A DNA stretch of 64,000 nucleotides from NCBI RefSeq assembly GCF_044324875.1, contig NZ_CP172185.1. One strand, given 5' to 3'. The notes under the pieces were generated by a model. That model searched no databases. It was not told the origin of the DNA and was given only the letters and a program-made list of their open reading frames with translations. Both the position numbers and the translations under genes were made by a program. Of this stretch, positions 3,688-46,081 are shown one piece after another (position 1 is the first letter of the stretch; each line of letters opens with the position of its first letter). This stretch comes from Escherichia coli. GTDB taxonomy: Bacteria; Pseudomonadota; Gammaproteobacteria; Enterobacterales; Enterobacteriaceae.

Positions 3688-3882
3688 ATGGCACTTCCTC
3701 AGCCCCCGGTTACGTTCATTTGTACCAGATGTAAGTGGCGTAAAACCATTGTCCATATGGGATGTACTACTGGATTTTCACATTGTCCTCAATGTGGCAG
3801 TAATTCGGTAAAACGGGAAAATGCTGGTGTTGTTACTTCATTATTTTCCTCCCTTTCATCCGTTTTCATGAAAAAATCCTGA
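3688..3882 (+). CDS. Small zinc-ribbon-like protein (CxxC...CxxC), hypothetical
   Basis: 64-aa ORF with CTRC ... CPQC pairs; directly upstream of the leo-like operon. Confidence 0.3.
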   Translation: MALPQPPVTFICTRCKWRKTIVHMGCTTGFSHCPQCGSNSVKRENAGVVTSLFSSLSSVFMKKS

Positions 3883-3983
3883 CTGCTGTTATTTTTATAT
3901 TGCTGGTACTTTATTAAAATCCGCTAAGGTTTTGTATCAGAAATAATTCTCAGACAGTAATCGTCATTCCATTCCGGGGATTT

Positions 3984-4652
3984 ATGAATACGAAAGAACA
4001 ATTCAACCAGCTTTATGATGATATCAGTAATCAGATACGCCAGACTGTGAATGATATTTCGCAACTGAGTGTTGAGAATGAAAAAGGACAGATACATCTC
4101 AATAAAATACGGGAACAACTACAGGCATTACATGATAACTTCAATCATAAGCTGGATTACCTGAAGGAGCATGCCGAATGGGACAGGTTTACTGTCGCTT
4201 TTTTTGGCGAAACGAATGCTGGTAAAAGTACCATAATTGAGTCGTTGAGAATATTATTTGATGAAACAACCCGTCGTGAATTCCTGAATAATAATCAAAA
4301 AGATTTACAAAAGTCAGAACAGGAGTTAAGTAAAAACCTGGAACAGTTAAGCCATGATTTGGAATGCGTTTATGGTGATATTGTCGATAAATTCCGTGAC
4401 ATTAGTTTGTCTGTCATGCAGTTACGACAAATTGTTGCTGATGAGAGCGCATTACGTATAAAAATGGAAGAAGATGAAAAGAATGCCCGTCTCCTTACAG
4501 AACAGAATGAAAGTCAGGCCCGGCTGAATATTTTACAGCAACAGACGAATACCAAAGCACGTTTCAGATTATTTGTGACGGCAATTATCAGCATGATTGT
4601 GGGAGGATGTGGATTTCTGTTGCTGAATCAAGTATTCGGGAGCTTACAATGA
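3984..4652 (+). CDS. leoC: LeoC-like: P-loop (G1) fragment of a split dynamin-like protein with C-terminal TM segment
   Basis: GETNAGKST Walker A/G1, coiled-coil-like middle, hydrophobic C-terminus; stop TGA overlaps the next ATG (ATGA at 4649-4652). Confidence 0.55.
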   Translation: MNTKEQFNQLYDDISNQIRQTVNDISQLSVENEKGQIHLNKIREQLQALHDNFNHKLDYLKEHAEWDRFTVAFFGETNAGKSTIIESLRILFDETTRREFLNNNQKDLQKSEQELSKNLEQLSHDLECVYGDIVDKFRDISLSVMQLRQIVADESALRIKMEEDEKNARLLTEQNESQARLNILQQQTNTKARFRLFVTAIISMIVGGCGFLLLNQVFGSLQ

Positions 4653-9870: not shown

Positions 9871-11051
9871 AAAATTTCCTATTTAAAGGTCAGGTGTTAA
9901 TGCTGACATGCGATTTTGAGACGTATAAATAGTCCTTGTCTATTATATTCTTATCAATTTTATTTTCAATGTTTTTATCTTCTTTTTATACACTCTTAAA
10001 AAGAACCGATTTTATTACCTGAGCATGTAATGTAAAAGTATATGTGTGATGATTAAAGTTTTTATCCTTATTTTTCCTGTAAGGACGAGCTTTCCGTGGT
10101 TGCTGTTCTCGTATGTATGCGGGGTATTACTTTCACTAATGGTTAAAATTCTTTCCTTCCGGTTAAAGCATTCATGTGTTTGTATTTTTCTTTGCTATTT
10201 GTTTTTTAGTACAGAATTTAATTAGTGTGGTTGTGATTTTTGTTGATATCACCACGCGCATTTTATATGAAATAGCCACATAACTTTCAACAAAATATAA
10301 AAATAAAATTATGCTATAGTAAACAACAGATTTTTATGTTTATGAAAGATGACCACTTTTTTAATTTGACTGAATTTTTTAAGATGCTTTTGAGTTGTGA
10401 AATATATTTTTCTTTATTGCTTTTTGGAATGTTGACGGGGCGTAGTTATGATTAATATAACAGAAGTTTCAGGAACGCTTTTTTCTTTTAAATGCCTGCG
10501 CATGACTTGTTCAATAATGTGTTTTCATCATATTTTTTTGGCATCAATACAATAATTAAAGATATAACGTTAAAATATTATTTATTGGCTTTTCCTGATG
10601 GAGTAAAAACAAATGTAACAACTAACTGCATGATAAATAAGTAGAATGGTCAGTATCATGTATATTATTTGGGTATAAGTGGTATTTGTAAAGAATCAGT
10701 TGTGTTACTCCGGAATATATCTCTTTGAGAGAGCAGAAGTGAAACAGATATTCTCTTGAAAGTATTGCATTATCGTTACCGTTTTTATATCAGAGGCTGA
10801 AAATACGTATTTTTATAAACAGGGTGGAGGCATTTTTGTGTTATGTATGGATTTTCAAACCGGGTGAATCATCCAGACAGGTAATAATATAATAAGAAAT
10901 GTTGCTGCCAGGCTAAAACAGGAACGTGTACTTCTGTGAAAATGTTGATGCGAAGCTACCATTATTTGGGGTAGGGTATCTTCGCTCATCAGATGATATT
11001 GAATATGGTCGCCTGAAATCAGAAATTAAAAAATACAAATGGTAGTTAACT

Positions 11052-11078
11052 CCCCACCAACCGCTGTGGTTGGTGGGG
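11052..11078 (-). terminator. Perfect 11-bp-stem hairpin immediately downstream of int, followed by a G8 tract
   Basis: ccccaccaacc-gctgt-ggttggtgggg, then gggggggg; T-run only 15 nt further on the minus strand, so not a canonical intrinsic terminator. Confidence 0.3.
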
Positions 11079-11087
11079 GGGGATGGC

Positions 11088-12281
11088 TTATTTCGTTTGT
11101 ACGTTTTTCTCCATAAGTGAATCAATGTAATCAGCGTACCACTGCATCATTTCACGACGTCCATCGAGATACAGGGCATGATTATAGGTACCCCTGATGG
11201 AGTTTTTATCCACATGCGCTAACTGCATTTCAATCCAGGCAGAATTAAAGCCCTGTTCGTGCAGAATTGTGCTCATTGTGTGACGAAAACCATGGCCGGT
11301 TGCTCTGCCATCGTAACCGATGCGTTTTAGTACCATATTGATGCTGGCTTCACTCATCGGTTTGTTAACATCGCAACGTCCGGGGAATATAAGGCGATAC
11401 TGCCCGGTAAAACGATGCAATTCCTGCAGCAGTGAAATGGCCTGGCGTGACAGAGGAACAATATGATGCCTGCGCATTTTCATTCGCTCTTCAGGGATAT
11501 GCCAGAGTGCGTTGTCAGAATCAATTTCTGACCATTCGGCCAGCCGCAATTCAATCGTTCTGAGTCCGGTCAGCATCAGCAGGCTCGTCGCCATACGGGT
11601 GACAGGACTGCCATGATAGTCAGCGAGCTTCCGGAGAAAAACAGGAAGTTCATCCGCTCTCAGATGGGGAAAATGTGCGGTTTTTGGTGCCGCCAGCGTA
11701 CTGGTCAGTTCTGATGCAGGATTGACAGTGGCACGTCCTGTGGCAATGGCATAACGGAAAATCTGATTGCAGTATTGACGGACCTTGCGTAATTTTTCCA
11801 GAGAGCCACGTTTTTCAATACGACGCAAAATCTCCAGCATTTCCAGCGGGAGGATATCAGTCACGCTCCGGTTGCTCAGATACGGGAAAACGTCTTTATC
11901 CAGCGCTTCCAGTACGCTTCTGGCGTAACTGTCAGACCATGATAAAGATTTATGATGATGCCATTCCATTGCGAGAGCATGAAAGGTGTTGGTGACAGAG
12001 ATTTTCTGAGAGAGTTTTTCCCTTCGCTTCTTTTCACCGGGATCTCCACCCTCGGATATAATTTTTCGTGCATCGTCGCGTCTGGTTCTGGCTTCAGCAA
12101 GGGAGACGTCAGGATAGACGCCGAGGGACAGTTTTTTCTCCTTTCCTGCTGTTCTGTACTTAAGGCGCCAGTAGCGTGCTCCCGTGGTTTTTACCAGCAG
12201 ATATAAACCACGTTCATCAGAAAGTTTATAATCTTTGTCTTTAGGTCTTGCCGTTTCGACCTGTCTGGCTGTAAGTGCCAT
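11088..12281 (-). CDS. int: P4-type tyrosine integrase
   Basis: MALTARQVETARPKDKDYKLSDERGLYLLV...RYWRLKYR...KLSLGVYP N-terminal domain typical of P4/CP4-57 IntA integrases; RBS-supported ATG at 12281; adjacent to tRNA-derived att. Confidence 0.9.
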   Translation of the reverse strand: MALTARQVETARPKDKDYKLSDERGLYLLVKTTGARYWRLKYRTAGKEKKLSLGVYPDVSLAEARTRRDDARKIISEGGDPGEKKRREKLSQKISVTNTFHALAMEWHHHKSLSWSDSYARSVLEALDKDVFPYLSNRSVTDILPLEMLEILRRIEKRGSLEKLRKVRQYCNQIFRYAIATGRATVNPASELTSTLAAPKTAHFPHLRADELPVFLRKLADYHGSPVTRMATSLLMLTGLRTIELRLAEWSEIDSDNALWHIPEERMKMRRHHIVPLSRQAISLLQELHRFTGQYRLIFPGRCDVNKPMSEASINMVLKRIGYDGRATGHGFRHTMSTILHEQGFNSAWIEMQLAHVDKNSIRGTYNHALYLDGRREMMQWYADYIDSLMEKNVQTK

Positions 12282-12457
12282 ATGGGGGCCCCTTAAACTG
12301 ACCGAACACAATGAGCCCCCAAATGTGCCCCCATTTAATGCTTGATTCAGGGGGTGTTCAATAGAATTCGGTGGAGTTCAAAATGTCCGGAACGATTATA
12401 AATCAGTGATTATACATGAATTTCGTGGAGTGCGGGGGATGTGTGTAGAAGTGAAGG

Positions 12458-12507
12458 TGGTGCCCTGACTCGGAATCGAACCAAGGAAACGGGGATTTTC
12501 AATCCCC
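12458..12507 (-). other. att core: 50-nt copy of the 3' end of tRNA-Phe (no D-arm or 5' acceptor strand), not a full tRNA gene
   Basis: Minus-strand read GGGGATTGAAAATCCCCGTTTCCTTGGTTCGATTCCGAGTCAGGGCACCA matches the anticodon arm to CCA end of E. coli tRNA-Phe (recalled) with 2 mismatches; upstream sequence does not fold as a tRNA. Confidence 0.75.
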
Positions 12508-12558
12508 GTGCCATAATTGGCTGTGTCAGTTGGTTACACACCATTGAGGTGTGTACTA

Positions 12559-13437
12559 ATGAAAATACTGCCCGTTGTCTCCACAAAAGGTGGCGAAGGT
12601 AAATCAACACAATCCGCAAACCTGGCTGGTTTTCTCGCCGATGCAGGTATCCGTACCCTGCTGATTGACGGAGATCATGCTCAGCCCACGGCAAGCAACA
12701 TCTTTCCGCTGACATATGAAGCGTCAGCCGGTCTTTTTGAGTTGCTGATGCGCACGGCTGACCTCAGTCATCCCGATAACATCATTTCCCGCACGGCTAT
12801 CGACGGACTCGATCTGATAGTCTCCAATGACCCTCATGAGCAGTTAAAAACTGCGATGCTTCACGCCCCGGATGGTCGTCTGCGCCTCCGGAATGTCCTG
12901 CAGCATCCGCTTTTTCTGAACAACTACGATGTCATTGTAGTTGATTCTCAGGGAGCACGTTCTGTCATGCTCGAAATGATTGTGCTGTCGGCCACTGATT
13001 CGGTTGTCGGGATGGTCAATCCGGTACTCCCTGATGTGCGCGAGTTTATTCGGGGCACTGTCAATGTTATGGAGAACCTGCTGCCTTACCGGGAGCTGGG
13101 GATACCCCTGCCGAAAGTACGCACGCTGGTTAACTGCATGGATTATACGGCACTGGCCAGGAAGACGCTGGATGAGCTGGCCGGAATTATTCAGACCGGT
13201 CGTTACAGCAGACAGTTACCTGAAGGTGCGGTTTCCCTTCTTTCCACACAGATTTACGACCTGAATATTTACAAGCAGGGGCATGCGGCTGGTCAACCCG
13301 TACATCGTCTCGAAAAAGAATCCACACGTCGCAGTGATTCCGCGCTTGTCACGATGCACAGCCTGGCCTGTGAACTCTTTCCTGAGTGGAAACAGGCGTT
13401 TGACGGGCTGCTGGCGAACGGGGGAATACGTCAGTGA
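12559..13437 (+). CDS. parA: ParA/Soj-family partition ATPase of the ICE
   Basis: Deviant Walker A VVSTKGGEGKST; first gene after att, as in pKLC102/PAPI-1-type elements. Confidence 0.85.
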   Translation: MKILPVVSTKGGEGKSTQSANLAGFLADAGIRTLLIDGDHAQPTASNIFPLTYEASAGLFELLMRTADLSHPDNIISRTAIDGLDLIVSNDPHEQLKTAMLHAPDGRLRLRNVLQHPLFLNNYDVIVVDSQGARSVMLEMIVLSATDSVVGMVNPVLPDVREFIRGTVNVMENLLPYRELGIPLPKVRTLVNCMDYTALARKTLDELAGIIQTGRYSRQLPEGAVSLLSTQIYDLNIYKQGHAAGQPVHRLEKESTRRSDSALVTMHSLACELFPEWKQAFDGLLANGGIRQ

Positions 13438-13504
13438 TTCAGGTTAAGCGAGAACCATGCAGCTCCGTTACCCTGGCTTATGGACGTTATCAATACCGGA
13501 CAAT

Positions 13505-14020
13505 ATGACGAGAAGGATTAACCCTATGAATAACAGCAGCAATACCACAACCCGTAATACGCTTTCACCCGTTGAGTCAGCCTGTCATGCCTTACTGGAT
13601 TTTATTGCCCGGGAAGTTTTTGAGAATAAAGCACCGGAAGAGGACGTCAGGGAACGTTGCAAAGTATTTACAGCGCTGCTTAACGAAGGATTTAAAGCCC
13701 TGCTTGATGAGGCAGGGCTGAATCTGTCAAACCTTCGTAAACAGTGTGAGGAACTGGAATCTCAGATAACCAGACTTGATTCTCAGTCCGATGCTATTTG
13801 TCGCAGAGGTGCTCAAATTGAACGCTTCATTGGTCACCATTTACCTTTTTTCGATTTGAACAAAGTTTTTGATACTGCCAGTCAGTCATGTGAACCAGCG
13901 CCTTCTCCGGCTCAGTCGGCTGTGTCCAGTAGTCAGCCCAGTAATCTGTCAGAGCAAGGGACATCTCAGCGGGTGTCATCTGTTCAACCGTTGCAGGGAG
14001 CCAGTGATGTTGATGAATAA
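13505..14020 (+). CDS. Hypothetical ICE protein
   Basis: ORF between soj and dnaB; start uncertain; low-complexity S/Q-rich C-terminus. Confidence 0.35.
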   Translation: MTRRINPMNNSSNTTTRNTLSPVESACHALLDFIAREVFENKAPEEDVRERCKVFTALLNEGFKALLDEAGLNLSNLRKQCEELESQITRLDSQSDAICRRGAQIERFIGHHLPFFDLNKVFDTASQSCEPAPSPAQSAVSSSQPSNLSEQGTSQRVSSVQPLQGASDVDE

Positions 14021-14378
14021 GAGCAAACTTAACGGCTTGTTGAACGCTGATACTGTTATCGTCCAGAAAAAACCAGCGGCGGCTGTTAATCAGCCAGTGT
14101 CCGAGCCAGCAAAGTCGGTAAGCGAGCTTCCGGTCAGCTCCGGGAAAGATTTCTGTTCCCTGGTCAAAGAAGGTTTTGCACCGTTCCACATCGTCGGTGC
14201 TCATACCTCCGACTTTCCAGTTTTCATAATATTTTGCCATGTTGCCATCCTCATCATGGTTGTTATCAATGCCGGACGGCAGTTGCTGATGATTTGTGTT
14301 CATAAGGTATTTCTCTTCGTAAACATGTTGATTATGAGCGCAAATATGCTGTACGTACCTTCTGACCGGGGTCGGCAA
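13827..14378 (-). CDS. Hypothetical protein (Trp-rich), convergent with and overlapping the previous ORF
   Basis: 183-aa ORF with globular-looking composition; fills an otherwise 490-bp gap before dnaB; cannot decide from sequence alone which overlapping frame is real. Confidence 0.3.
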   Translation of the reverse strand: MPTPVRRYVQHICAHNQHVYEEKYLMNTNHQQLPSGIDNNHDEDGNMAKYYENWKVGGMSTDDVERCKTFFDQGTEIFPGADRKLAYRLCWLGHWLINSRRWFFLDDNSISVQQAVKFALIHQHHWLPATVEQMTPAEMSLALTDYWADYWTQPTEPEKALVHMTDWQYQKLCSNRKKVNGDQ

Positions 14379-14511
14379 ACTTACCGGTCGGAAAATGTAC
14401 AGAAAGTTATGGGCCTTTTATGCCCTGCAACTGTTCGTCCGGCACCCGTTTTCGTTTTTTTGCATGGTGGGTTTGCTGTGAAACAGGCTCCGTTTGCCCG
14501 GGAGGTGGCGT

Positions 14512-15900
14512 ATGTCTGAACGCTATATTCCACGCTCCGTTGATGCAGAGCAGGCCGTGCTGGGCGGCCTGATGCTCGATAATGAACGCTGGGATGAGGT
14601 GGTACTGATGCTCCGGGGGGAGGATTTTTCTCTGGCCGCACACCGGGTGATATTCCGCACCATGTCAGAGCTGGCAACCAGCGGTCAGCCGTTCGACCTC
14701 ATCACGCTGAGTGAGCATATTGAGAAAACAAACAATATTGAGGCACTGGGTGGTTTCGCTTATCTGGCTGAACTCAGCAAAAATACGCCTTCTGCAGCCA
14801 ATATTATCGCTTATGCCCGTATTGTTGCTGAAAAGAGCATGCTGCGTCAGTTGCAGGAGACGGGGAATGCGCTGATTACGGATGTGGCCGCACCGGATGC
14901 GACACCACGCACTGTTCTTGAATCCGCTGAACGTCGGCTCTTTTCACTTTCACAGACTGGCATGTTGCATGAGCGATGTGAAGTCAGTCTCACCTCGGCT
15001 ATGGAGCTGGCGCTGCGTCAACTGGAAGAGGGACTGAACGCCGGCGGGATGACGGGCACGCCCACGGGATTTGATGAACTGGATGAGATGACCTGTGGTC
15101 TGCAGCCCGGCGACCTCATTCTTCTGGCTGCACGCCCGTCTATGGGGAAAACAGCGCTGGGCCTTACCTTCTGTCTTAATGCCCTGTGTAACCGGACCGA
15201 TGAAACGGTATTTCTTTTCAGTATCGAAATGTCCCGGGAGCAGCTGATTCTGCGTGTCCTGTCAATGCTCTCCAGGGTGGAGCTGACACGTCTTCGCAGC
15301 AGCATGATGGATGATGAAGAGTGGGCGAGAGTCACGGCAACCATGGGACGCTTCATGAATGAAGCGTCATTCATCGGAGATGGAAACCGCCTGATAATTG
15401 ATGACACCTCCTTCCAGACGCCGTCATCGCTGCGTGCCAGCGCCCGTCGTTATGTCCGTCTGTATGGCAGACCTTCCCTGATAATGGTTGATTACCTCCA
15501 GCTGATTCGTTCTCCGGACCAGGAGAACCGAACGCAGGAAATTGCGGAAATATCCCGCGCCCTTAAGGCGTTAGGTAAAGAGCTGGGATGCCCGGTACTG
15601 GCACTGTCTCAGCTTAACCGTCAGGTGGAGCAGCGGGCGGATAAGCGCCCCAATAACGGTGACCTGCGTGATTCCGGGGCGCTGGAGCAGGATGCTGACC
15701 TCATTATGTTTATTTACCGTGATGAGGTTTATAACTCTGGCACGCTGGATAAGGGCGTTGCTGAAATCATTGTGAGCAAACAGCGGCAGGGGCCAACCGG
15801 AACGATACGGGTGAACTTCGACGGCCGCTACACCCTGTTTTCACCGTTTGAACGTGGATGGAATTTTGACCGTGCCGGAGGAAATGCGTATGTCAATTAA
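14512..15900 (+). CDS. dnaB: Replicative DNA helicase DnaB homologue
   Basis: GGAGG RBS; DnaB N-terminal domain (SVDAEQAVLGGLMLDN), Walker A ...AARPSMGKTALGLTF... Confidence 0.9.
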   Translation: MSERYIPRSVDAEQAVLGGLMLDNERWDEVVLMLRGEDFSLAAHRVIFRTMSELATSGQPFDLITLSEHIEKTNNIEALGGFAYLAELSKNTPSAANIIAYARIVAEKSMLRQLQETGNALITDVAAPDATPRTVLESAERRLFSLSQTGMLHERCEVSLTSAMELALRQLEEGLNAGGMTGTPTGFDELDEMTCGLQPGDLILLAARPSMGKTALGLTFCLNALCNRTDETVFLFSIEMSREQLILRVLSMLSRVELTRLRSSMMDDEEWARVTATMGRFMNEASFIGDGNRLIIDDTSFQTPSSLRASARRYVRLYGRPSLIMVDYLQLIRSPDQENRTQEIAEISRALKALGKELGCPVLALSQLNRQVEQRADKRPNNGDLRDSGALEQDADLIMFIYRDEVYNSGTLDKGVAEIIVSKQRQGPTGTIRVNFDGRYTLFSPFERGWNFDRAGGNAYVN

Positions 15901-34261: not shown

Positions 34262-35043
34262 ACGTTTCATTTACTGAACAGGTGCAGAGGGATATGCCGC
34301 AATGGGCGAATGACCCGTTACTGGCATGGGATGCCACCGCGTTTGCGGCAATGTCGGATTTTATTACAGAGCACTACTGGACGGGACAGGGCAGCATCAA
34401 TGTGTTCCGCATTGTGGGAACTGACCATCCACAGTATGCCGGAATGACCTGGCTGGAGCTGCTGGAGCGCGGTAACCGTATGGACATCAATATCCCGTTA
34501 CTGGAAAAAAATCCGGGATACTACACGCAGGCAGAGCAACAGCATGCCGGGATGAGTTTTGTCAGCACGGATGGCGTTGACTGGTATGTCAGTACAGACG
34601 GCAATCACCGCAGTTGCCTGGCACGCTTTCTGTTTCACCTGCAGGGGGAGGAGCGCACACAGCTTCACAACGTGGCACAGAGTATTTATCACACAGACCG
34701 GGCGTTCTGGTCTGCCTGCCGGGAAATCCACAACCTGACTGACGCGCTGTCCCGGCATGGTGTATATATCCGTCTGCAGATCCGACGGCAGTGTGTTGCC
34801 CGCGAAGACCTGGCCTGCTGGAAAGTGGACCGTTTCAGCACAGAGGCGCAGCTGACAGTGGATGACGTGCGTGCCGGCGGACATGATATGCCTGCGGTGT
34901 ATAAGACGTTGCTGCTGAATGCGGCAGACGCATGGCGTGAGGTGATGGTATTACAGCGCAGACTGGAGGCGCTGTCTGCATCACCGGGGAACGATTTGCC
35001 ACGCACATGGTGGCGACGTCTTTTACGGAAGGGGGACATGTAA
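34258..35043 (+). CDS. Hypothetical ICE protein
   Basis: GTG start 34258 after GAGAAAGGAG; frame chosen for coupling to traD (TAATG overlap at 35041-35045). Confidence 0.5.
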   Translation: MNVSFTEQVQRDMPQWANDPLLAWDATAFAAMSDFITEHYWTGQGSINVFRIVGTDHPQYAGMTWLELLERGNRMDINIPLLEKNPGYYTQAEQQHAGMSFVSTDGVDWYVSTDGNHRSCLARFLFHLQGEERTQLHNVAQSIYHTDRAFWSACREIHNLTDALSRHGVYIRLQIRRQCVAREDLACWKVDRFSTEAQLTVDDVRAGGHDMPAVYKTLLLNAADAWREVMVLQRRLEALSASPGNDLPRTWWRRLLRKGDM

Positions 35044-37160
35044 TGAGCAACCGCTATGTCATTGAGGCATTGCTGAGACCGGCTGTGGAGTTCAATACGG
35101 CAGTGGTGGCAGCAACAGCAGCATGTATCTGTGTGACAGCCCCCTGGGCGGTGGCGCTGGCACCCACCGTCAGTTACGCCACTGCCGGTGGATTTGCCCT
35201 GCTGGCCGTGGTGCGTTTCCGGCAGGGGATGAACATCATCCGGTATCGCCGTAATCTGCGCCGGCTGCCCCGCTATGTGATGAGTACACGGCAGATCCCG
35301 CTCAGCCGTCAGCGGCTGTTTCTGGGGCGGGGATTTCGCTGGACCCAGAAGCATACCCAGCGTCTCCAGGATACGCTGCGACCGGAGGTGGCACACTATC
35401 TGCAGCCGGGCGGACTTTACCGGCTGGCGCGCTGGCTGGAAATGAAAACGGAACACCGTCTGCCCGCGCTGGGGAAACTGCTCCGGCATGAGTCGTCGCT
35501 GAATCCTGTGCGTCCTCTGCCGCCGGTGGGGGGAAATCCCGCCCTGCATGGTATTGAGCCGGATGAACAGGATGTGACGCTGGCTCTGGGGGAGCGTGTG
35601 GGGCATACCATTGTCTACGGCACCACCCGTGTCGGTAAAACCCGCCTGGCAGAACTGCTGGTCACTCAGGATATTCGCAGGGGAGAGGTGACCATTGTTT
35701 TTGATCCCAAAGGTGATGCTGATCTGCTGCTGCGTGTCTGGGCGGAAGCACACCGTGCCGGGCGGGGTGATGAACTGTATATTTTCCATCTGGGATGGCC
35801 GGAAATTTCGGCCCGATATAATGCGGTGGGACGCTTCGGGCGTGTTTCGGAAGTGGCTTCCCGTGTGGCCGGGCAGTTGTCCGGTGAAGGGAACTCGGCG
35901 GCTTTCCGCGAGTTCGCCTGGCGGTTCGTCAACATCATTTCCCGCGCCCTGGTGGCACTCGGTGAGCGCCCGGACTACCTGCTGATTGTGCGGTATGTGA
36001 ACAACATAGCCGATCTCTATATCCGCTATGCCGGAAAGGTGATCCGCGAGCGCATGCCGGAACTGGAGCAGGCGATTGCGAATAACCAGAATGTGATCAG
36101 CGAGGAGGATGTTCCCCGCACCATGCAGAACCAGCCGGATGCGGTACGTATCTGGTCCATCGAGATGGCCCTGAGCAGTGAGGAGGGTAAAAAAATTTAC
36201 GATCCGATCCTGGACGGGCTTCGCAGTGCGGTCCGCTATGACCGTACCTATTTTGACAAAATCGTGGCGTCCCTGCTGCCGCTGCTGGAAAAACTCACCA
36301 CGGGCAGGATCGCAGAGCTGCTGGCACCGGACTATCTGGACATGAACGATGCGCGACCGATTTTTGACTGGGAACAGGTGATCCGTAAAAAGGCGGTGGT
36401 CTATATCGGCCTGGATGCACTCAGCGACAGTGTGGTAGCCAGTGCTGTGGGGAATTCGATGTTTGCGGACCTGGTGAGCGTGGCGGGGCATATCTACAAG
36501 CACGGCATGCATGCCGGTCTGCCCGGTAAGGGGGAAGGCAAAAATGTGGTGAACCTGCACTGCGATGAGTTTAACGAACTGATGGGGGATGAGTTTATTC
36601 CGCTCATTAACAAGGGGGGCGGTGCCGGTATGCAGGTCACCGCGTACACCCAGACATCGTCAGATATTGAAGCGCGTATCGGTAATGCAGCCAAAACGGC
36701 GCAGGTTCAGGGAAACTTCAACAACATGATCATGCTGCGTGTCAGGGAGAACAGGACGGCAGAGCTGCTGACCACACAACTGCCTCAGGTGGAGATCTAC
36801 ACCAAGACGCTGGTCTCCGGTCACCAGGATACGGCGGACGTGTCTGCCGGTCAGGATTTCACGTCCAGCACCCAGGATCGTGTCGGCACGGTGAAGGTAC
36901 CTCTGCTGGAGCCGTCAGATATTGTCACCCTGCCCAAGGGACAGGCGTTTGCCCTGCTGGAAGGGGGGCAGCTGTGGAAAATCCGGATGCCGCTGCCGGC
37001 AGGGGATACGGATGACGTGCTGATGCCGGAGAACATTGCCCGGGTGGCAGAGGCGATGAGACAGAACTATCACACCGGTGAAGGATGGTGGAATGAGCCG
37101 CCGTCAGCGCAGGCCGCCGGAACAGATGAAGGAGGCGGATATGGCGGAAGCGCGTCGTGA
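35043..37160 (+). CDS. traD: Type IV coupling protein TraD (ICE type)
   Basis: Two N-terminal TM helices; Walker A ...TIVYGTTRVGKTRLAEL...; about 700 aa. Confidence 0.85.
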   Translation: MSNRYVIEALLRPAVEFNTAVVAATAACICVTAPWAVALAPTVSYATAGGFALLAVVRFRQGMNIIRYRRNLRRLPRYVMSTRQIPLSRQRLFLGRGFRWTQKHTQRLQDTLRPEVAHYLQPGGLYRLARWLEMKTEHRLPALGKLLRHESSLNPVRPLPPVGGNPALHGIEPDEQDVTLALGERVGHTIVYGTTRVGKTRLAELLVTQDIRRGEVTIVFDPKGDADLLLRVWAEAHRAGRGDELYIFHLGWPEISARYNAVGRFGRVSEVASRVAGQLSGEGNSAAFREFAWRFVNIISRALVALGERPDYLLIVRYVNNIADLYIRYAGKVIRERMPELEQAIANNQNVISEEDVPRTMQNQPDAVRIWSIEMALSSEEGKKIYDPILDGLRSAVRYDRTYFDKIVASLLPLLEKLTTGRIAELLAPDYLDMNDARPIFDWEQVIRKKAVVYIGLDALSDSVVASAVGNSMFADLVSVAGHIYKHGMHAGLPGKGEGKNVVNLHCDEFNELMGDEFIPLINKGGGAGMQVTAYTQTSSDIEARIGNAAKTAQVQGNFNNMIMLRVRENRTAELLTTQLPQVEIYTKTLVSGHQDTADVSAGQDFTSSTQDRVGTVKVPLLEPSDIVTLPKGQAFALLEGGQLWKIRMPLPAGDTDDVLMPENIARVAEAMRQNYHTGEGWWNEPPSAQAAGTDEGGGYGGSAS

Positions 37161-40425: not shown

Positions 40426-41342
40426 GAACCTGTGTACTGCGCAACCTGCTGCGTCCTGCCGCTGTGATGTTGTCGCTGTCAGTGATGTCCCTGACGGCGC
40501 AGGCAGATGAACTGATGAAGTGGGAGCGTATTCCGCTGGATGTCCCGCTGATGGTGGGGCAGGAGCGGGTCATTTTTGCCGATAAAAACGTGAGGGTGGG
40601 CTTTCCGCCTGCACTGAACGGCAGGCTGCGGGTGCAGAGCACCGGCGGTGCCGTCTACCTGAAAGCGGACAGCGCCTTTCCGAAAACGCGGGTTCAGCTG
40701 CAGGATGTGGAAAGCGGGGAGATGATCCTGCTGGATGTGACGGCCGCAGAAAAGGGGCCCACTGAGCCTGTCCGGATTGTGTATGACGGGGAGGTGAACA
40801 CGGTGAGCCGTGCCGGCGGCAGCGCTCCGGAGAGCGCGAAGGCGGGCAGCAGTGACGGACGTCCCGGGAAAGTCGGTGCGGATGACGGCACGCAGGCCCG
40901 CCGGACCGCCCCCCGTTATGACGAGCCCTTGCCGGTTCTGCTGACCCGGTATGCGGCACAGTCCCTGTATGCTCCGCTGCGCACCCTTGAACCGGTTGCG
41001 GGGATCAGACCGGTGGTGCCACCTCTTCCCCGGCAAATCACCACGCTTTACCCGTCTGAACCCCTGACGGTATCCCCGGTGGCGGCATGGTCCGCCGGCG
41101 GACGAACCGTGGTGGCCCTGAAACTCACCAGTACGGTGAGCCGGCGTATTGTGCTTGATCCGCGAGCCCTGCAGGGCCGTTTTGTGGCGGCCACCTTCCA
41201 GCACCGCTGGCTGGGTGCTGCCGGGACACCGGAAGACACCACAATGCTGTATGTGGTGACGGCAGGCCGCCCGGAGAAGGCCTTTGTGGCAGAGCCTGTG
41301 GCACCGCGCAGGACGGGCGGGGAGGTGAAACATGCAGATTAA
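40422..41342 (+). CDS. ICE T4SS periplasmic protein (VirB9/TraK-like position)
   Basis: Signal peptide; operon position. Confidence 0.55.
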   Translation: MRTCVLRNLLRPAAVMLSLSVMSLTAQADELMKWERIPLDVPLMVGQERVIFADKNVRVGFPPALNGRLRVQSTGGAVYLKADSAFPKTRVQLQDVESGEMILLDVTAAEKGPTEPVRIVYDGEVNTVSRAGGSAPESAKAGSSDGRPGKVGADDGTQARRTAPRYDEPLPVLLTRYAAQSLYAPLRTLEPVAGIRPVVPPLPRQITTLYPSEPLTVSPVAAWSAGGRTVVALKLTSTVSRRIVLDPRALQGRFVAATFQHRWLGAAGTPEDTTMLYVVTAGRPEKAFVAEPVAPRRTGGEVKHAD

Positions 41343-42810
41343 GTCCAATACCCTGGTGAAATTTGTGGTACCTGCTGTGGTACTGGCGGGGCTGGTGATC
41401 ACGATGAAAAGCTGCAGCACACCGGAGAGCGGGAGTGAGAGTACAGCACAGAGCGGTGCGCTGGCCGGATTATCGTCAGAAGAGCTGCGTGCGCTGGGCG
41501 TGGAAGGGGACACGCCGGAGGATACCCTGCGGACCCTGGTTGCCCGCCTGAACCAGGTCAGGGATAACCAGAAAACGCTGGAGAGCCAGAATGCGCAGTT
41601 GCTGAAGGACAACGAACAACTGCGTCGCCGGGGGACGGATGTGTCCGGCCAGGTCAGTGAAGCCGTGGCGGGAATGCAGAAAACCTACGATCAGAAGCAG
41701 CGTGAACTGCAGGAGCAGCAGCGCTCCCTGATGTCGCAGATTGATGTGCTGCGGGGGCAACTGAGTGACCAGCTGACGGGAAGTCACACGAAGCTCAGCG
41801 ATATTCCTGACGGGCTGGGACTGGATTCAGGCAGTGGTTCCGGGTCGTTGATCTCGCAGGGGGCGGACGGGCTGATGTGGGTGAGTCCGGCCGATCAGTC
41901 ACAGGATGATCCGCTGAGCAGCGGCGGAAAGAGCGGTCCGCGTTTTCCGACCTCCTTCCTTGAAGATAACCCCCTGACCCGGCAGAAAGCAGCCTATGAG
42001 CAGCAGGTGAAGGGGTACAGCAATGAGCAGCAGGCGGCCACCACGCAGGCCGTGTACACCCTGCCGGAGAACTCAACCCTGACGGGCAGCCGTGCCATGA
42101 CGGCCCTGCTGGGCAGGGTGCCGGTAAACGGCACGGTGACCGATCCGTATCCGTTCAAGATCCTCGTGGGGCGCGATAACCTCACGGCAAACGGCATTGA
42201 ACTGCCGGATGTGGAGGGGGCTGTGGTGTCAGGGACGGCCAGCGGTGACTGGACGCTTTCCTGTGTGCGCGGACAGGTGAACAGCATCACCTTTGTGTTT
42301 GCTGACGGCACGGTACGCACGCTGCCACAGGCGGATGTGAACGGTACCACCAACAGCAATCAGCAGGCGAAAAACGGGAATAACGCAGGCGGGATTGGCT
42401 GGATTTCGGATGAGGATGGGATCCCGTGTATCAGCGGCACCCGTAAATCCAATGCGTCAACCTACCTGCCGACGATATTCGGGCTGGCCGCAGCCGGCGC
42501 GGCAGGGGATGCCCTGAGTGAGGGGCAGTACACCTCGCAGAACAATGTCAACGGTATAACCTCGACGCTGACCGGCAGTGCCGGTGAAGCGGCGCTGGGT
42601 AAGGCCCTTTCCGGCGGGATGAATGAGACCGCGGACTGGGTAAGACAGCGTTACGGGCAGACCTTTGATGCCATTTATGTGCCGCCGGGAAAAACGCTGG
42701 CCGTTCACATTACCCGTCAGCTGGCGATTGATTATGAAGAGCGTGGACGTCGTGTGCGTTATGACTTCACCCTGCCGGGAGAAGCGGGCGACCGGGGCGG
42801 CCTTGACTGA
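41332..42810 (+). CDS. ICE T4SS protein (VirB10/TraB-like position)
   Basis: N-terminal TM, coiled coil, Gly/Ser-rich linker, C-terminal beta-rich domain. Confidence 0.6.
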   Translation: MQIKSNTLVKFVVPAVVLAGLVITMKSCSTPESGSESTAQSGALAGLSSEELRALGVEGDTPEDTLRTLVARLNQVRDNQKTLESQNAQLLKDNEQLRRRGTDVSGQVSEAVAGMQKTYDQKQRELQEQQRSLMSQIDVLRGQLSDQLTGSHTKLSDIPDGLGLDSGSGSGSLISQGADGLMWVSPADQSQDDPLSSGGKSGPRFPTSFLEDNPLTRQKAAYEQQVKGYSNEQQAATTQAVYTLPENSTLTGSRAMTALLGRVPVNGTVTDPYPFKILVGRDNLTANGIELPDVEGAVVSGTASGDWTLSCVRGQVNSITFVFADGTVRTLPQADVNGTTNSNQQAKNGNNAGGIGWISDEDGIPCISGTRKSNASTYLPTIFGLAAAGAAGDALSEGQYTSQNNVNGITSTLTGSAGEAALGKALSGGMNETADWVRQRYGQTFDAIYVPPGKTLAVHITRQLAIDYEERGRRVRYDFTLPGEAGDRGGLD

Positions 42811-42827: not shown

Positions 42828-43232
42828 GTGAAACGATTACTGTTCGTGATGAGTGTGGCACTGGTGCTGTCGGGCTGTGCCACCTCTAAAGAAGAGCTGC
42901 TGCCTGCCGGAGAGCAGACGATGCTGGAGCTCTGGCAGGGTAAAACCGCAGGTGGCGGTCAGCGGCATGCGCTGGCCGCCCGGGAAACGTTGCGCCGTCC
43001 CCTTACGGTAACGGAGCAGCAGGGGATGAACGCGGAGGCGTACAGCTACAGCCGGACGCAGGAAAGCGAAATCAGCCAGCAGTTTCCGCGTCTGCCGAAT
43101 CCCGACATGGTGATGTATGTGTTTCCGCATCTGGCCGGCGGTACGTCGCCGGTTCCGGGCTACAGCACGGTATTTCCTTTTTACAGCAGGACGCAGTATG
43201 CGCTGCCAGGTGAGCGTACGGAGGCTCTGTAA
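42828..43232 (+). CDS. ICE conjugal-transfer lipoprotein
   Basis: Lipobox LVLSGC. Confidence 0.55.
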   Translation: MKRLLFVMSVALVLSGCATSKEELLPAGEQTMLELWQGKTAGGGQRHALAARETLRRPLTVTEQQGMNAEAYSYSRTQESEISQQFPRLPNPDMVMYVFPHLAGGTSPVPGYSTVFPFYSRTQYALPGERTEAL

Positions 43233-46081
43233 TGACATTCTCGCTTTTCAGACGCCGTGAGGAAAAAGGTACAGCAGAGACCAGGGAACGACCGGAAGCA
43301 GAAGCGGGGGCATCTTCATCGGCCTTTGTTCCGCCCTGTCCTCCGGGGGCACAGCCCCTGCGACGTCCGGGACAGATGACCCGTGATGCTGAGGCGGCGG
43401 TTTATCATGCCGGTCCGTCGGTTATTGATTTTCTGCCATGGGTGGAATATCTGGATGAGGAGCAGTGTCTGCTGCTTGACGACGGGGTGTCGGTGGGAGC
43501 GGTCTATTCGGTGACGCCGGCCGCAACGGAAGGGCGTACGGAAGAGCGCCTGGCGCAAATCAGGGACATGGTGGAGGATGCCCTGCAGGACAGTTTTGAT
43601 GAGTACGACACGCATCCCTGGGTGGTGCAGTTCTACTGTCAGGATGAAAATGATGTGGATGCGTACCTGGACTATCTGAAGGGGTATGTGAAACCCCACG
43701 CGCAGGGAACGGCATTCACGGAGGCCTGGCTGGGTGAAATGGCCCGCCATCTCAGGGGGATTGCCCGTCCTGAGGGACTGTTTACGGACACCCTGGTCAC
43801 CGGTCAGCCCTGGCGGGGACAGCAGCGACGAACCCGGATGGTGGTTTACCGTCGTATCGGGAAGAACAATAACGATCCGATGTCGCCGGTGGCGATGCTG
43901 AACCAGGTCTGCGACCGCGTGGTGTCCGCACTGGGTGGAGCCGGTATCCGCTGTACCCGGATGAACGGTCAGCAGGTGCACAGCTGGCTGCTGCGGTTAT
44001 TTAATCCGGCACCGGACTGGATTGCCCGTGAAGAGCTGTACCGGATGGCCTCACGGGTTGATCCGCGTGAGCGTGGTGATGATGTGATGCCGGTGATGAC
44101 GGATTTTGCCGAGAGCCTGTGGTTTAACCCGCCGTATTCCGATCCGGAGAACGGGGTGTGGTGGCTGGACGCCATGCCGCACTGTGCCGTGGTGGTGGAA
44201 AAGCTGCGTACGCCGCCGGAGCCGGGGACCATCACCGGAGAGATGCCCCGTGGGGAAAAAACGGTGAATGCGCTGATGGACACCTTTCCGGAGGGAACGG
44301 TGATGTGCATGACCATCGTGGTGCAGCCCCAGGACACCCTGGAGGACCGTTTCACCCGGCTGTCGAAAAATGCGGTGGGTGAGAACACGGAATCCATCCG
44401 GGCGCGTCAGGACGTGAAGGTGGTGAAGGAGCTGCTGGGGAACCGGCACAAGCTGTACCGGGCAGGGCTCACCTTTCTTCTGCGGGCAGAGGATATGGAC
44501 AGCCTGAAACGCCGGCGTGTGGAGCTGACCACGGTGCTTCTGGGGGCTGGTCTGCAGCCGGTGCGGCCTGAGTTTGACGTGGGGCCGCTGAACAGCTGGC
44601 TGCGGGCGCTGCCGATGTGTTTTGATCCGGATACGGACAAAAAGCAGTGGTACACGCGTCTGATGTGGGTACAGCACATGGCAGGATTGTTGCCGGTGAC
44701 CGGCCGGGATACGGGGACCGGACATCCGGGGTTCAGTTTTTTTAACCGGGGTGGTGATGTGCTGACTTTCGATCCGCTGAACAAGCTGGACCGTACCCAG
44801 AACGCGCATCTGCTGCTGTTCGGACCAACGGGGGCCGGTAAATCGGCCACGCTGTGTGCTTCACTGTCGCAGGTGATGGCAGTACACCGTCCCCGCCTGT
44901 TCATTGCCGAAGCGGGGAACTCGTTTGGTCTGCTGGCCGATTATTTTGAGAGTCTCGGGCTGTCGGTGAACAAAATCAGCGTCAGACCGGGAACCGGTGT
45001 GACCCTGCCGCCGTTTGCAGATGCGCATAAACTGGTTGAGGAAGGGCAGGATCTGCAGTGCGTGGATGAGCACTCACTGCCTGATATTGAGGATGAAGCC
45101 GGGGATGAAGGGGAGGATAAACGAGACATTCTGGGCGAGATGGAAATCTCAGCCAGGATGATGATCACCGGGGGGGACCCGAAAGAAGAGGCCGCGCTGA
45201 AGCGTGCGGACAGGGCGATGATCCGCGAGGCGCTGCTGATGGCCACACACCGGACATACCGTGAGGGGCGGCAGATGCTGCCGGAGGATTTGCAGTCCGC
45301 CCTGTGGGAGATCTCCCGTGACAGCAGCCGTAACGATGTGCGCAATGCAAAGGCGGCGGAGATGGCGGAGTCTCTGGGGATGTTCACCCAGAAGGGGAGT
45401 TTTGAGGCGGAGTTGTTCAACCGTGAGGGCGAACTGTGGCCGGAAGCGGATGTGACGCTGATTGACCTGGGGCATCTGGCCCGTGAGGGGTATGAGGCAC
45501 AGATGGCGCTGACCATGGTGTCGATGACCAACATGATCAATAACATTGCCGAACGTGATCAGTATCTGGGGCGTGACATCGTGTTTGCGGTGGATGAGGC
45601 GCATATCGTGACGGTCAATCCGCTGCTTTCGCCGTACATGACGAAGGTTGTGAAGATGTGGCGTAAGCTGGGAGCGTGGCTGTGGCTGGCGACACAGAAC
45701 CTGAAGGATTATCCGGATGTGTCGGAGAAGATGCTGAATATGGCGGAATGGTGGGTGTGTCTGACGATGCCACCGGAGGAAGTGAACAACATTGCACGCT
45801 TTAAATCACTGACGGAAGAGCAGAAAGCGGTGCTGATGTCGGCGAGTAAGCTGTCCGGCTGTTATACCGAAGGCGTGGTGCTGGCGAAACAGATTGAGGC
45901 GCTGTTTCGTGCGGTGCCGCCAAGTCTCTATCTGGCGCTGGGCATGACGGAGAAAGAAGAGAAGGCTGAGCGGCGCATGCTGATGAAGGAACATAACTGC
46001 AGCGAACTGGAGGCGGCGTTCCATGTGGCGCGTAAGCTGGACAGGCTGCGTGGTCTGTCGGCCATGGAGGCGGATGTATGA
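43232..46081 (+). CDS. Conjugative transfer ATPase (VirB4/TraC-like)
   Basis: 949 aa; Walker A ...LLLFGPTGAGKSATL...; Walker B-like ...IVFAVDEAH... Confidence 0.9.
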   Translation: MTFSLFRRREEKGTAETRERPEAEAGASSSAFVPPCPPGAQPLRRPGQMTRDAEAAVYHAGPSVIDFLPWVEYLDEEQCLLLDDGVSVGAVYSVTPAATEGRTEERLAQIRDMVEDALQDSFDEYDTHPWVVQFYCQDENDVDAYLDYLKGYVKPHAQGTAFTEAWLGEMARHLRGIARPEGLFTDTLVTGQPWRGQQRRTRMVVYRRIGKNNNDPMSPVAMLNQVCDRVVSALGGAGIRCTRMNGQQVHSWLLRLFNPAPDWIAREELYRMASRVDPRERGDDVMPVMTDFAESLWFNPPYSDPENGVWWLDAMPHCAVVVEKLRTPPEPGTITGEMPRGEKTVNALMDTFPEGTVMCMTIVVQPQDTLEDRFTRLSKNAVGENTESIRARQDVKVVKELLGNRHKLYRAGLTFLLRAEDMDSLKRRRVELTTVLLGAGLQPVRPEFDVGPLNSWLRALPMCFDPDTDKKQWYTRLMWVQHMAGLLPVTGRDTGTGHPGFSFFNRGGDVLTFDPLNKLDRTQNAHLLLFGPTGAGKSATLCASLSQVMAVHRPRLFIAEAGNSFGLLADYFESLGLSVNKISVRPGTGVTLPPFADAHKLVEEGQDLQCVDEHSLPDIEDEAGDEGEDKRDILGEMEISARMMITGGDPKEEAALKRADRAMIREALLMATHRTYREGRQMLPEDLQSALWEISRDSSRNDVRNAKAAEMAESLGMFTQKGSFEAELFNREGELWPEADVTLIDLGHLAREGYEAQMALTMVSMTNMINNIAERDQYLGRDIVFAVDEAHIVTVNPLLSPYMTKVVKMWRKLGAWLWLATQNLKDYPDVSEKMLNMAEWWVCLTMPPEEVNNIARFKSLTEEQKAVLMSASKLSGCYTEGVVLAKQIEALFRAVPPSLYLALGMTEKEEKAERRMLMKEHNCSELEAAFHVARKLDRLRGLSAMEADV

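Follow-up and report, generated by a model that had tools for sequence, protein, structure and literature searches.

Shadow open reading frames (ORFs) are long frames that stay open antisense to real genes and in codon alignment with them, and antisense overlapping gene pairs have been proposed in Escherichia coli and other bacteria, in a literature that is contested. In conjugative elements, FinP/traJ provides a case of cis-antisense pairing over a translation start region. Several plasmids control their replication genes by a leader peptide combined with an antisense RNA, namely tap-repA/CopA of R1, repY-repZ/Inc RNA of IncI1/IncB and repR-repA of IncI2 (PMC8053102), and in ICEHin1056 the parA-dnaB-parB genes correspond to orf1-3 (PMC3739013). 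Here we describe the 1.07-kb parA-dnaB gap of an SPI-7-type island, contained in a window of 64,000 nucleotides (nt) from E. coli (NZ_CP172185.1, assembly GCF_044324875.1). The locus is a two-strand coding unit in which known themes are joined: translational coupling, leader ORFs and cis-antisense pairing. In the papers that we searched, neither an antisense gene nor a bridging ORF or structured element was found described for the stretch from parA to dnaB.

The gap holds ORF1 (+ strand), gene A (the minus ORF) and ORF2 (the third frame, + strand), together with a conserved structured element (Table 1). The explanation that we favour, by a small measure over an even chance, is that ORF2 acts as a translated bridging cistron which couples ORF1 to dnaB across the antisense gene. 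Translation of ORF2 from the operon mRNA, taken by itself, is suggested at about the same strength by comparison of related islands. Comparators in the coding tests were islands at 93, 90, 72-76 and about 55 % nt identity; the comparison of the window with locus L044 (loci outside the window are given by L numbers) was saturated at 54 % identity and was left out of the conclusions on dN/dS, the ratio of nonsynonymous to synonymous substitution rates.

A sequence-only reading of this DNA had reported three overlapping open frames on both strands, had picked out the minus-strand product as the most globular although it would be an antisense gene inside a + stranded backbone, and had asked for homology or expression data to resolve them. 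The ORF listing gives their longest forms as 13457..14020 (+), within which the ATG at 13505 named in that reading sits, 13827..14378 (-) and 13869..14519 (+), and all three are indeed open over 13869-14020. Homology was what separated them. The starts of the longest forms are not conserved; the conserved starts are the ATGs at 13526 (ORF1), 14303 (A) and 14007 (ORF2). The leaning toward the minus ORF was right, but the implied choice of a single real frame with the others spurious fails, as ORF1 read from 13526 is likewise under purifying selection over its first ~100 codons. Amino acid conservation is found both in the ORF1 core and in the minus frame and is lacking in ORF2. The third frame nevertheless did not turn out to be a mere spurious ORF, given its overlaps at both ends and its avoidance of stop codons, though its protein is not conserved.

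By these comparisons gene A is a conserved antisense protein gene under purifying selection, and the coding tests, the ORF map and its family context agree on its place inside the + stranded backbone. Its dN/dS is 0.09-0.21 over the whole gene and 0.06-0.22 in the part overlapped by ORF1 (Nei-Gojobori). A and ORF1 converge and share 194 nt, in which only A's frame is constrained: relative to the 76 % relatives, substitutions per codon position of the minus frame in 13827-14020 number 9/5/21, and the changes hit second positions of ORF1. Every copy of A has a strong Shine-Dalgarno (SD) sequence, an ATG and the N-terminus MNTxxQ(Q)LPSGI(D/E). A profile of A and its B paralogues found 31 representatives among 1.8 billion proteins, and the family is marked by the motifs RLxWLGxWL and HxWxPxxVxxM(S/T)xxE. 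Relatives at 20-50 % identity, some of them outside the parA-dnaB context, include genes lying antisense between parA and dnaB in L017/L030 (Proteus/Providencia), L076 and L079 and one antisense between dnaB and a ParB-like gene in L080. The globular appearance of the product is matched by an AlphaFold (AF2) model that is all-helical, with a predicted local distance difference test score (pLDDT) of 79 from 24 sequences. Gene A had no match in Pfam, NCBIfam, PHROGs, PADLOC or PDB, and no relative was found in the plasmid collection. A contig scan with the 18-mer AATGYCGGACGGCAGTTG was discarded as a means of finding further copies: it gave 31 loci, nearly all of them chance matches in unrelated phyla, the real ones being in Providencia and Proteus only. 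Shorter relatives of A, of ~90 amino acids (aa), were also seen (P0081 at L075 324-599, P0075 and P0082-P0084). P0081, the only one whose context was checked, lies on a 5-kb contig (L075) without parA or dnaB and weakly matches the NCBIfam 'ECs1072 family phage-associated protein' (E 1.3e-7, below cutoff) and phrog_5286.

Annotation in most genomes takes the minus ORF as spurious and the + chain ORF1-ORF2 as the sole coding content. The Prokaryotic Genome Annotation Pipeline (PGAP) calls ORF1 and ORF2 in 15 of the 20 genomes listed, and the + ORFs do tile the gap with overlapping stops and starts. Yet it is the minus frame, not ORF2, that is under purifying selection, the SD and ATG of the minus gene are conserved, and its product belongs to a protein family with diverged relatives and a confident fold, so that this model seems to us extremely improbable. 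The same asymmetry was observed for the B family and the P0063/P0065 pairs, where dN/dS is 0.28-0.48 in the minus frame vs. 0.84-1.10 in the + frame; a + frame of the ORF2 type is unconstrained opposite any antisense family.

ORF1 is, as far as alignments can tell, a real protein gene over its first ~100 codons. Its core has a dN/dS of 0.12-0.26 (Nei-Gojobori) with 30/22/46 substitutions per codon position against the 76 % relatives, the indels in the aligned coding stretch measure 45, 9, 12, 3 and 3 nt, all multiples of 3, and homologues at 55 % and 30 % aa identity each have their own SD. The tail (13827-14017, the last 64 codons, antisense to A) is unconstrained in its own frame (dN/dS 1.1-5.6), and given A it would be open in the window by chance with P about 0.16. 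Selection keeping this tail open was considered and found unconvincing, as the probability of no stop is 0.16-0.45 per lineage. ORF1 had no profile match in Pfam, NCBIfam, PHROGs or PADLOC and no fold match to a solved structure.

The ends of ORF2 are tied to its neighbours. On the + strand ORF1, ORF2 and dnaB follow one another with overlaps of 14 and 8 nt, and parB begins at ~15890, overlapping dnaB by 11 nt. In nine of ten junction types the stop of the bridging frame overlaps the ATG of the next gene by 4, 8 or 16 nt; the overlap at dnaB is ATGTCTGA, ATGGCTGA, ATGACTGA or ATGCATAA, and at other downstream genes it is ATGA (three unrelated genes) or 16 nt long (a fourth). At the other end, the SD and ATG of the bridging frame overlap the stop of the upstream gene in every lineage, with GGGAGG..ATGA on the parA stop in M19 and Providencia, ATG..TAA in L076 and L079, and ATGA after an 86-codon gene in UMNK88 and E24377A. 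The length of the bridging ORF in other islands varies from 107 to 243 codons.

An alternative is that ORF2 is an untranslated shadow ORF of A, open since TTA, CTA and TCA codons are rare, and that its end overlaps are by-products of other constraints, such as the LIxxHHWLP motif of A and the dnaB N-terminus. ORF2 does lie with position 2 opposite position 2 of A, the classical shadow frame, its dN/dS opposite A is 0.8-1.2, that is, about 1, and a conserved motif in the protein of A falls on the ORF1/ORF2 junction. In the window its openness is what chance would give (P 0.33), and some backbone genes are equally poor in mirror-frame stops and have long shadow ORFs. The case for ORF2 beyond chance is drawn only from cross-lineage comparisons, and several of these speak against a shadow. 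All 48 unique copies keep the frame open, and so do six diverged lineages. In all lineages it also stays open through ~160 nt that are noncoding on the minus strand, a stretch in which the remaining two + frames are broken by 2-6 stops. Two start codons, that of the antisense gene and the conserved + ATG, share the frame of the GACCGGGG motif in every lineage, so that all changes in length between them come in multiples of 3; this stretch is a 5′ leader for the antisense gene, yet it is frame-preserving. A shadow would equally leave it unexplained why the frame should begin just at the stop of parA, of the 86-aa gene or of ORF1, and why its end should fall on the start codons of four unrelated genes downstream.

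Stop avoidance in the antisense genes argues in the same direction. Ten of them contain 7 TTA/CTA/TCA codons vs. 18.4 expected under synonymous resampling (P about 0.001), and two control antisense frames show no stop deficit. These codons make up 7/222 of the Leu and Ser codons in antisense genes vs. 82/948 in backbone genes (Fisher P 0.0045). The avoidance is specific, as other A-ending codons are not avoided and are even commoner in antisense genes (odds ratio 1.39); with this adjustment the expectation rises to ~26 (P about 5e-6).

The + frame also outlives the antisense gene. In five nonsense-truncated antisense alleles (17, 21, 30, 54 and 65 aa) it stays open, two more truncated alleles (121 and 76 aa) being outside the set scored for the + frame, and among the copies scored no allele with a broken + frame was seen. 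The nonsense changes of all seven fall mostly at Trp, Tyr or Gly codons, and none of the alleles has a frameshift; antisense genes of this type seem, from such alleles, to be often dispensable. In M19 a 390-nt (130-codon) deletion destroys the antisense gene, leaving a 64-codon remnant, and a + ORF of 113 codons, 130 codons shorter than in Providencia, still runs from the stop of parA to the start of dnaB. The protein and codon usage of the antisense gene do not fully account for the openness of ORF2, which is not confined to that gene either, and we regard the shadow explanation as unlikely.

The conserved structured element, overlooked in the sequence-only reading, occupies the 5′ part and leader of the minus ORF. 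It lies within ORF2 and covers the ribosome site and first 12 codons of A, the 5′ arm of its closing stem H1 being codons 7-12 of that gene. Of 5426 complete E. coli genomes, 138 carry the stretch 14262-14460 in conserved form, also in islands with a parA-dnaB gap of only ~300 bp. Seven diverged versions each fold alone (+ strand) alike, with a 15-19-bp closing stem around three hairpins (z-scores -4 to -7.6). RNAalifold on an alignment of 21 sequences gave 45 pairs, 12 of them with compensatory changes; paired cells reach 96 % vs. 33-43 % in slid controls, and none of 500 shuffles matched the observed covariation. One-sided changes comprise 198 G.T vs. 9 A.C, and the structure therefore belongs to the + strand, which is the sense strand of dnaB. 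In L079 both arms of H1 have changed in concert, with compensatory pairs, and the peptide has gone from QLPSGID to QHESDID; in L080 the closing stem is formed by an unrelated sequence pair, so that the fold counts for more than that peptide. A cmscan of 12300-15000 on both strands against Rfam (E up to 1) gave no match. Elsewhere in the window, 57860-57938 (+) matches the covariance model of the element weakly (12 bits, E 0.15, 29 % GC), probably by chance.

Other islands carry up to three copies of the element per parA-dnaB gap, always in one orientation; the window has a single copy. Such copies, which flank different cassettes, would fit an element that acts as folded single-stranded DNA (ssDNA), whether as a site of primosome assembly or single-strand initiation, as a promoter used on ssDNA once conjugation has brought it in, or as a recombination site that swaps cassettes between its copies. 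The + strand folds well with DNA parameters (z -3.3; z -2.5 to -5.9), the element sits in a replication module beside a dedicated helicase gene, and repeated structured ssDNA signals are known from plasmid leading regions (PMC11541004). We consider such a role doubtful: the one-sided changes are nearly all wobbles of the G.U type, typical of RNA, the element lies inside a selection-kept ORF and over a translation start region, 72,556 plasmids gave no match to it, and homologous recombination between 200-bp repeats suffices for the cassette mosaic. A promoter of the Frpo type, in which the stem of a long hairpin ahead of the transcribed gene restores -35 and -10 hexamers, was rejected as the leading idea, as no such hexamers were found in the region or, by eye, in the 3′ hairpin arms, and the stems are too short. 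Stems to the right of the antisense SD do not exceed 19 bp and the closing stem encloses A's start codon, both of which count against that type. A small antisense RNA made from the + strand and served by a promoter and terminator of its own was likewise dismissed; no promoter was found, and the U-run is missing in the Proteus type.

The lower dN/dS of ORF2 inside the element (0.34-0.9, somewhat below 1) would also be compatible with translation of only its 3′ third, as a leader ORF of ~60 codons which starts at the ATG in the 3′ arm of H4 (14337) and is coupled to dnaB, the rest of ORF2 being shadow. An in-frame ATG is present there in every lineage, the frame read from it always ends on the start of the next gene, and the arrangement resembles the plasmid leader peptides Tap, RepY and RepR (PMC8053102). 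The ATG at 14337 has no SD, however, and pairing with CAT in H4 accounts for its invariance; such a leader would also leave unexplained the in-frame continuity upstream, the gene-wide stop avoidance and the SD and ATG at the upstream stop. We judge it improbable.

On the bridging-cistron explanation, ribosomes that end ORF1 would restart at the ATG at 14007, read the codon-aligned mirror frame of A and then the structured element, and terminate on the dnaB start at ATGTCTGA. With ORF2 read through to the dnaB start, the + strand would be translated without a gap from ORF1 into dnaB-parB. The unconstrained ORF1 tail would likewise be translated to carry ribosomes across the antisense gene, and selection would keep ORF2 open while leaving its amino acids free. 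More tentatively, continuous translation may shield the operon mRNA, where it runs opposite the antisense gene, from polarity, and dnaB-parB expression may be coupled to translation upstream. As the SD, ATG and leader of A lie inside the element, any mRNA of A would be exactly complementary to the structured leader, and some mutual interference between the A and dnaB-parB cistrons might be expected from this. A bolder version, which we offer as an unlikely possibility, is that in SPI-7-type islands the two strands of the parA-dnaB gap form one obligate coding unit, in which the bridging cistron is kept translatable for ribosomes to cross the antisense gene and the shared four-way-junction RNA makes A and dnaB-parB expression mutually exclusive; if true, this would be a built-in on/off switch for the replicative state of the island.

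Several observations weigh against a bridging cistron and its proposed consequences. In the one exceptional junction type, an ORF1-like junction, the frame stops ~17 nt short of the next ATG. In the window alone, about two stops are expected in ORF2 given A's protein and one is observed. Three of ten backbone genes match the low mirror-frame stop rate of the antisense genes, so that the stop-avoidance test depends on its codon-usage null, and the ten antisense genes and lineages tested are not fully independent. A stable four-way junction within a continuously translated ORF is awkward. dnaB has a strong SD of its own; no fold hiding its ribosome site was found in the interval that separates the element from the start of dnaB, which folds no more stably than shuffled sequence (z +0.6), and a need for coupling is thus not demonstrated. 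A sigma-70 scan found no promoter for gene A.

Table 1. Features of the parA-dnaB region; positions refer to the window unless an L number is given.
Feature	Position	Strand	Basis or remark
ORF2, 170 codons, WP_064733473.1; codon-aligned mirror frame of A continuing through the element	14007-14519	+	comparative marks
ORF1-stop/ORF2-start overlap AGGGAGccagtgATGttgATGaaTAA	14007-14020	+	sequence; same junction in L007, L044, L080
ORF2-stop/dnaB-start overlap ATGTCTGA, preceded by SD GGGAGGTGG	14512-14519	+	sequence
Gene A, 158 aa, WP_001354423.1	14303-13827	-	dN/dS, conserved SD and ATG, family
SD region of gene A, GAAGAGAAA here	14310-14318	-	alignment; AAGGAG in most copies
ORF1, small helical protein gene, 164 aa	13526-14020	+	SD GAGAAGGA and ATG; core constrained from 13526 to ~13826
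Structured element, ~200 nt, four-way junction	14258-14461	+	folding, covariation
H1, closing stem	14270-14286 / 14427-14444	+	element model
H4; stem holds CAT (anti-start of A), loop holds TTTCTCTTC (complement of A's SD)	14297-14303 / 14334-14340	+	element model
H2	14348-14369 / 14384-14407	+	element model
H3	14411-14414 / 14423-14426	+	element model
Truncated antisense alleles	L008 2836-2928; L006 3348-3545, 4431-4661; L005 4318-4683; L043 3247-3300; L040 4513-4578; L067 near 3020	antisense	nonsense codons
Tyrosine integrase	11088-12311	-	island context
parA/soj, ParA family ATPase, upstream cistron of the + chain	12559-13437	+	Pfam AAA_31/CbiA/ParA; PGAP 'ParA family protein' WP_000698645.1
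dnaB-PI, SPI-7-type island replicative helicase	14512-15900	+	Pfam DnaB/DnaB_C; PGAP dnaB-PI WP_089619916.1

The backbone of the island is of the SPI-7 type by Pfam and PGAP names (tyrosine integrase, ParA, dnaB-PI, ParB): an integrase is followed by ParA, dnaB-PI and ParB on one strand, an order repeated in related islands, and the large ORFs at 12.5-54 kb of the window are almost all on the + strand. Over the gap, the chromosomes of 30 E. coli strains, most of them avian pathogenic, match the window at 99.7-99.9 % identity. On DNA that is 99.9 % identical, RefSeq/PGAP annotates ORF1 (WP_001066088.1) and ORF2 (WP_064733473.1) in NZ_CP126926 and the minus ORF only (WP_001354423.1) in NZ_CP172127. 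RefSeq carries in this way two mutually exclusive gene models for the same DNA, neither of which shows all three frames. No Pfam domain was found in ORF1, A or ORF2. A RefSeq 'tRNA-OTHER' lies between integrase and parA in related islands (L005 1905-1983; L007 1047-1125), and ARAGORN found no tRNA in the corresponding part of the window (10500-13000).

In other E. coli and Salmonella islands the gap consists of two or three cassettes split by ~200-bp copies of the element (L005 3252-4837; L006 2114-4815; L007 2355-4663; L008 2488-4385; L040 1866-4751). Antisense genes of families A, B and C have the same first 12 residues, encoded inside the element, and the mosaic nature of the element copies suggests, at the level of sequence comparison, cassette exchange by recombination between copies. 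A second convergent pair was seen at L007 3431-4333 (+) / 4089-4487 (-) and L008 3156-4058 (+) / 3814-4212 (-), where a + gene of 300 codons overlaps the 3′ end of a family C antisense gene (132 aa) by ~245 nt, as in ORF1/A; PGAP annotates the + gene only, and the differences available for dN/dS in family C are few. In L080 (2685-3714, reverse-complement coordinates) an ORF1-like gene, an A-like gene, a bridging frame and the element lie between dnaB and a ParB-like gene, the bridging frame ending with ATGA on the ParB-like start; this placement of the whole set indicates that the module moves as a unit.

Further long antisense ORFs, of up to 623 codons, are present in the window and face large genes of the backbone: 34689-36560 (-) vs. 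35007-37160 (+), 40479-41612 (-), 43316-45546 (-) vs. 43232-46081 (+), and 50801-51679 (-) vs. 50618-52039 (+). TTA, CTA and TCA are very rare in the genes at 35007-37160 and 50618-52039 (0.42 per 100). These ORFs could be ordinary shadows or more cases like ORF2.

The use of long antisense overlapping ORFs in bacteria has been disputed for long, and this locus offers an unusually clean comparative case, in which one strand would be selected for its protein and the other only for openness, and substitutions synonymous for one strand introduce stop codons into the other. It also brings three uncharacterised parts into the replication/partition module of a family of pathogenicity islands that is widespread: an antisense protein family, a repeat-bounded cassette slot and a structured element. 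The module itself, with integrase, ParA, dnaB-PI, ParB, DUF2786 and DUF2857 in the same order, is like the maintenance module of SPI-7, PAPI-1, ICEclc and ICEHin1056.

Like FinP/traJ, the locus has a structured strand complementary to the SD and start of an opposite gene, with the anti-SD in a hairpin loop. Unlike there, no separate small-RNA promoter or terminator was found, the structured strand lies within the operon mRNA, and the Proteus type does not preserve the U-run that follows the structure. The tap-repA type shares with it an upstream ORF whose stop overlaps the start of a replication gene, here by ATGTCTGA at dnaB, a structured leader and, predicted in our case from the position of gene A, a complementary opposite-strand transcript. 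Leader peptides of that type have 19-29 codons (~20-30) and go with a sequestered ribosome-binding site, whereas ORF2 has 170 codons (other islands showing the range given above) and would itself be coupled to the preceding cistron, and no sequestering structure or pseudoknot was found here (z +0.6). The transcript complementary to the leader would belong to the 5′ part of an mRNA that encodes a protein and not be a dedicated small RNA, and the target is a DnaB-type helicase/ParB operon and not a Rep initiator.

With shadow ORFs, ORF2 has in common the codon-aligned antisense frame, the lack of aa constraint (dN/dS about 1) and an openness that comes partly from the rarity of TTA, CTA and TCA. 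It differs from them in carrying translation signals that tie it to the neighbouring cistrons, which it overlaps at both ends, in being open beyond the antisense gene, in its specific stop avoidance and in persisting after antisense loss. As in the antisense pairs proposed for E. coli and other bacteria, one piece of DNA carries a long ORF on either strand, and each of the two bears marks of use. What sets this pair apart is that only one partner is constrained as a protein while the other appears to be selected for translatability, and that the evidence is comparative, across a family of mobile elements.

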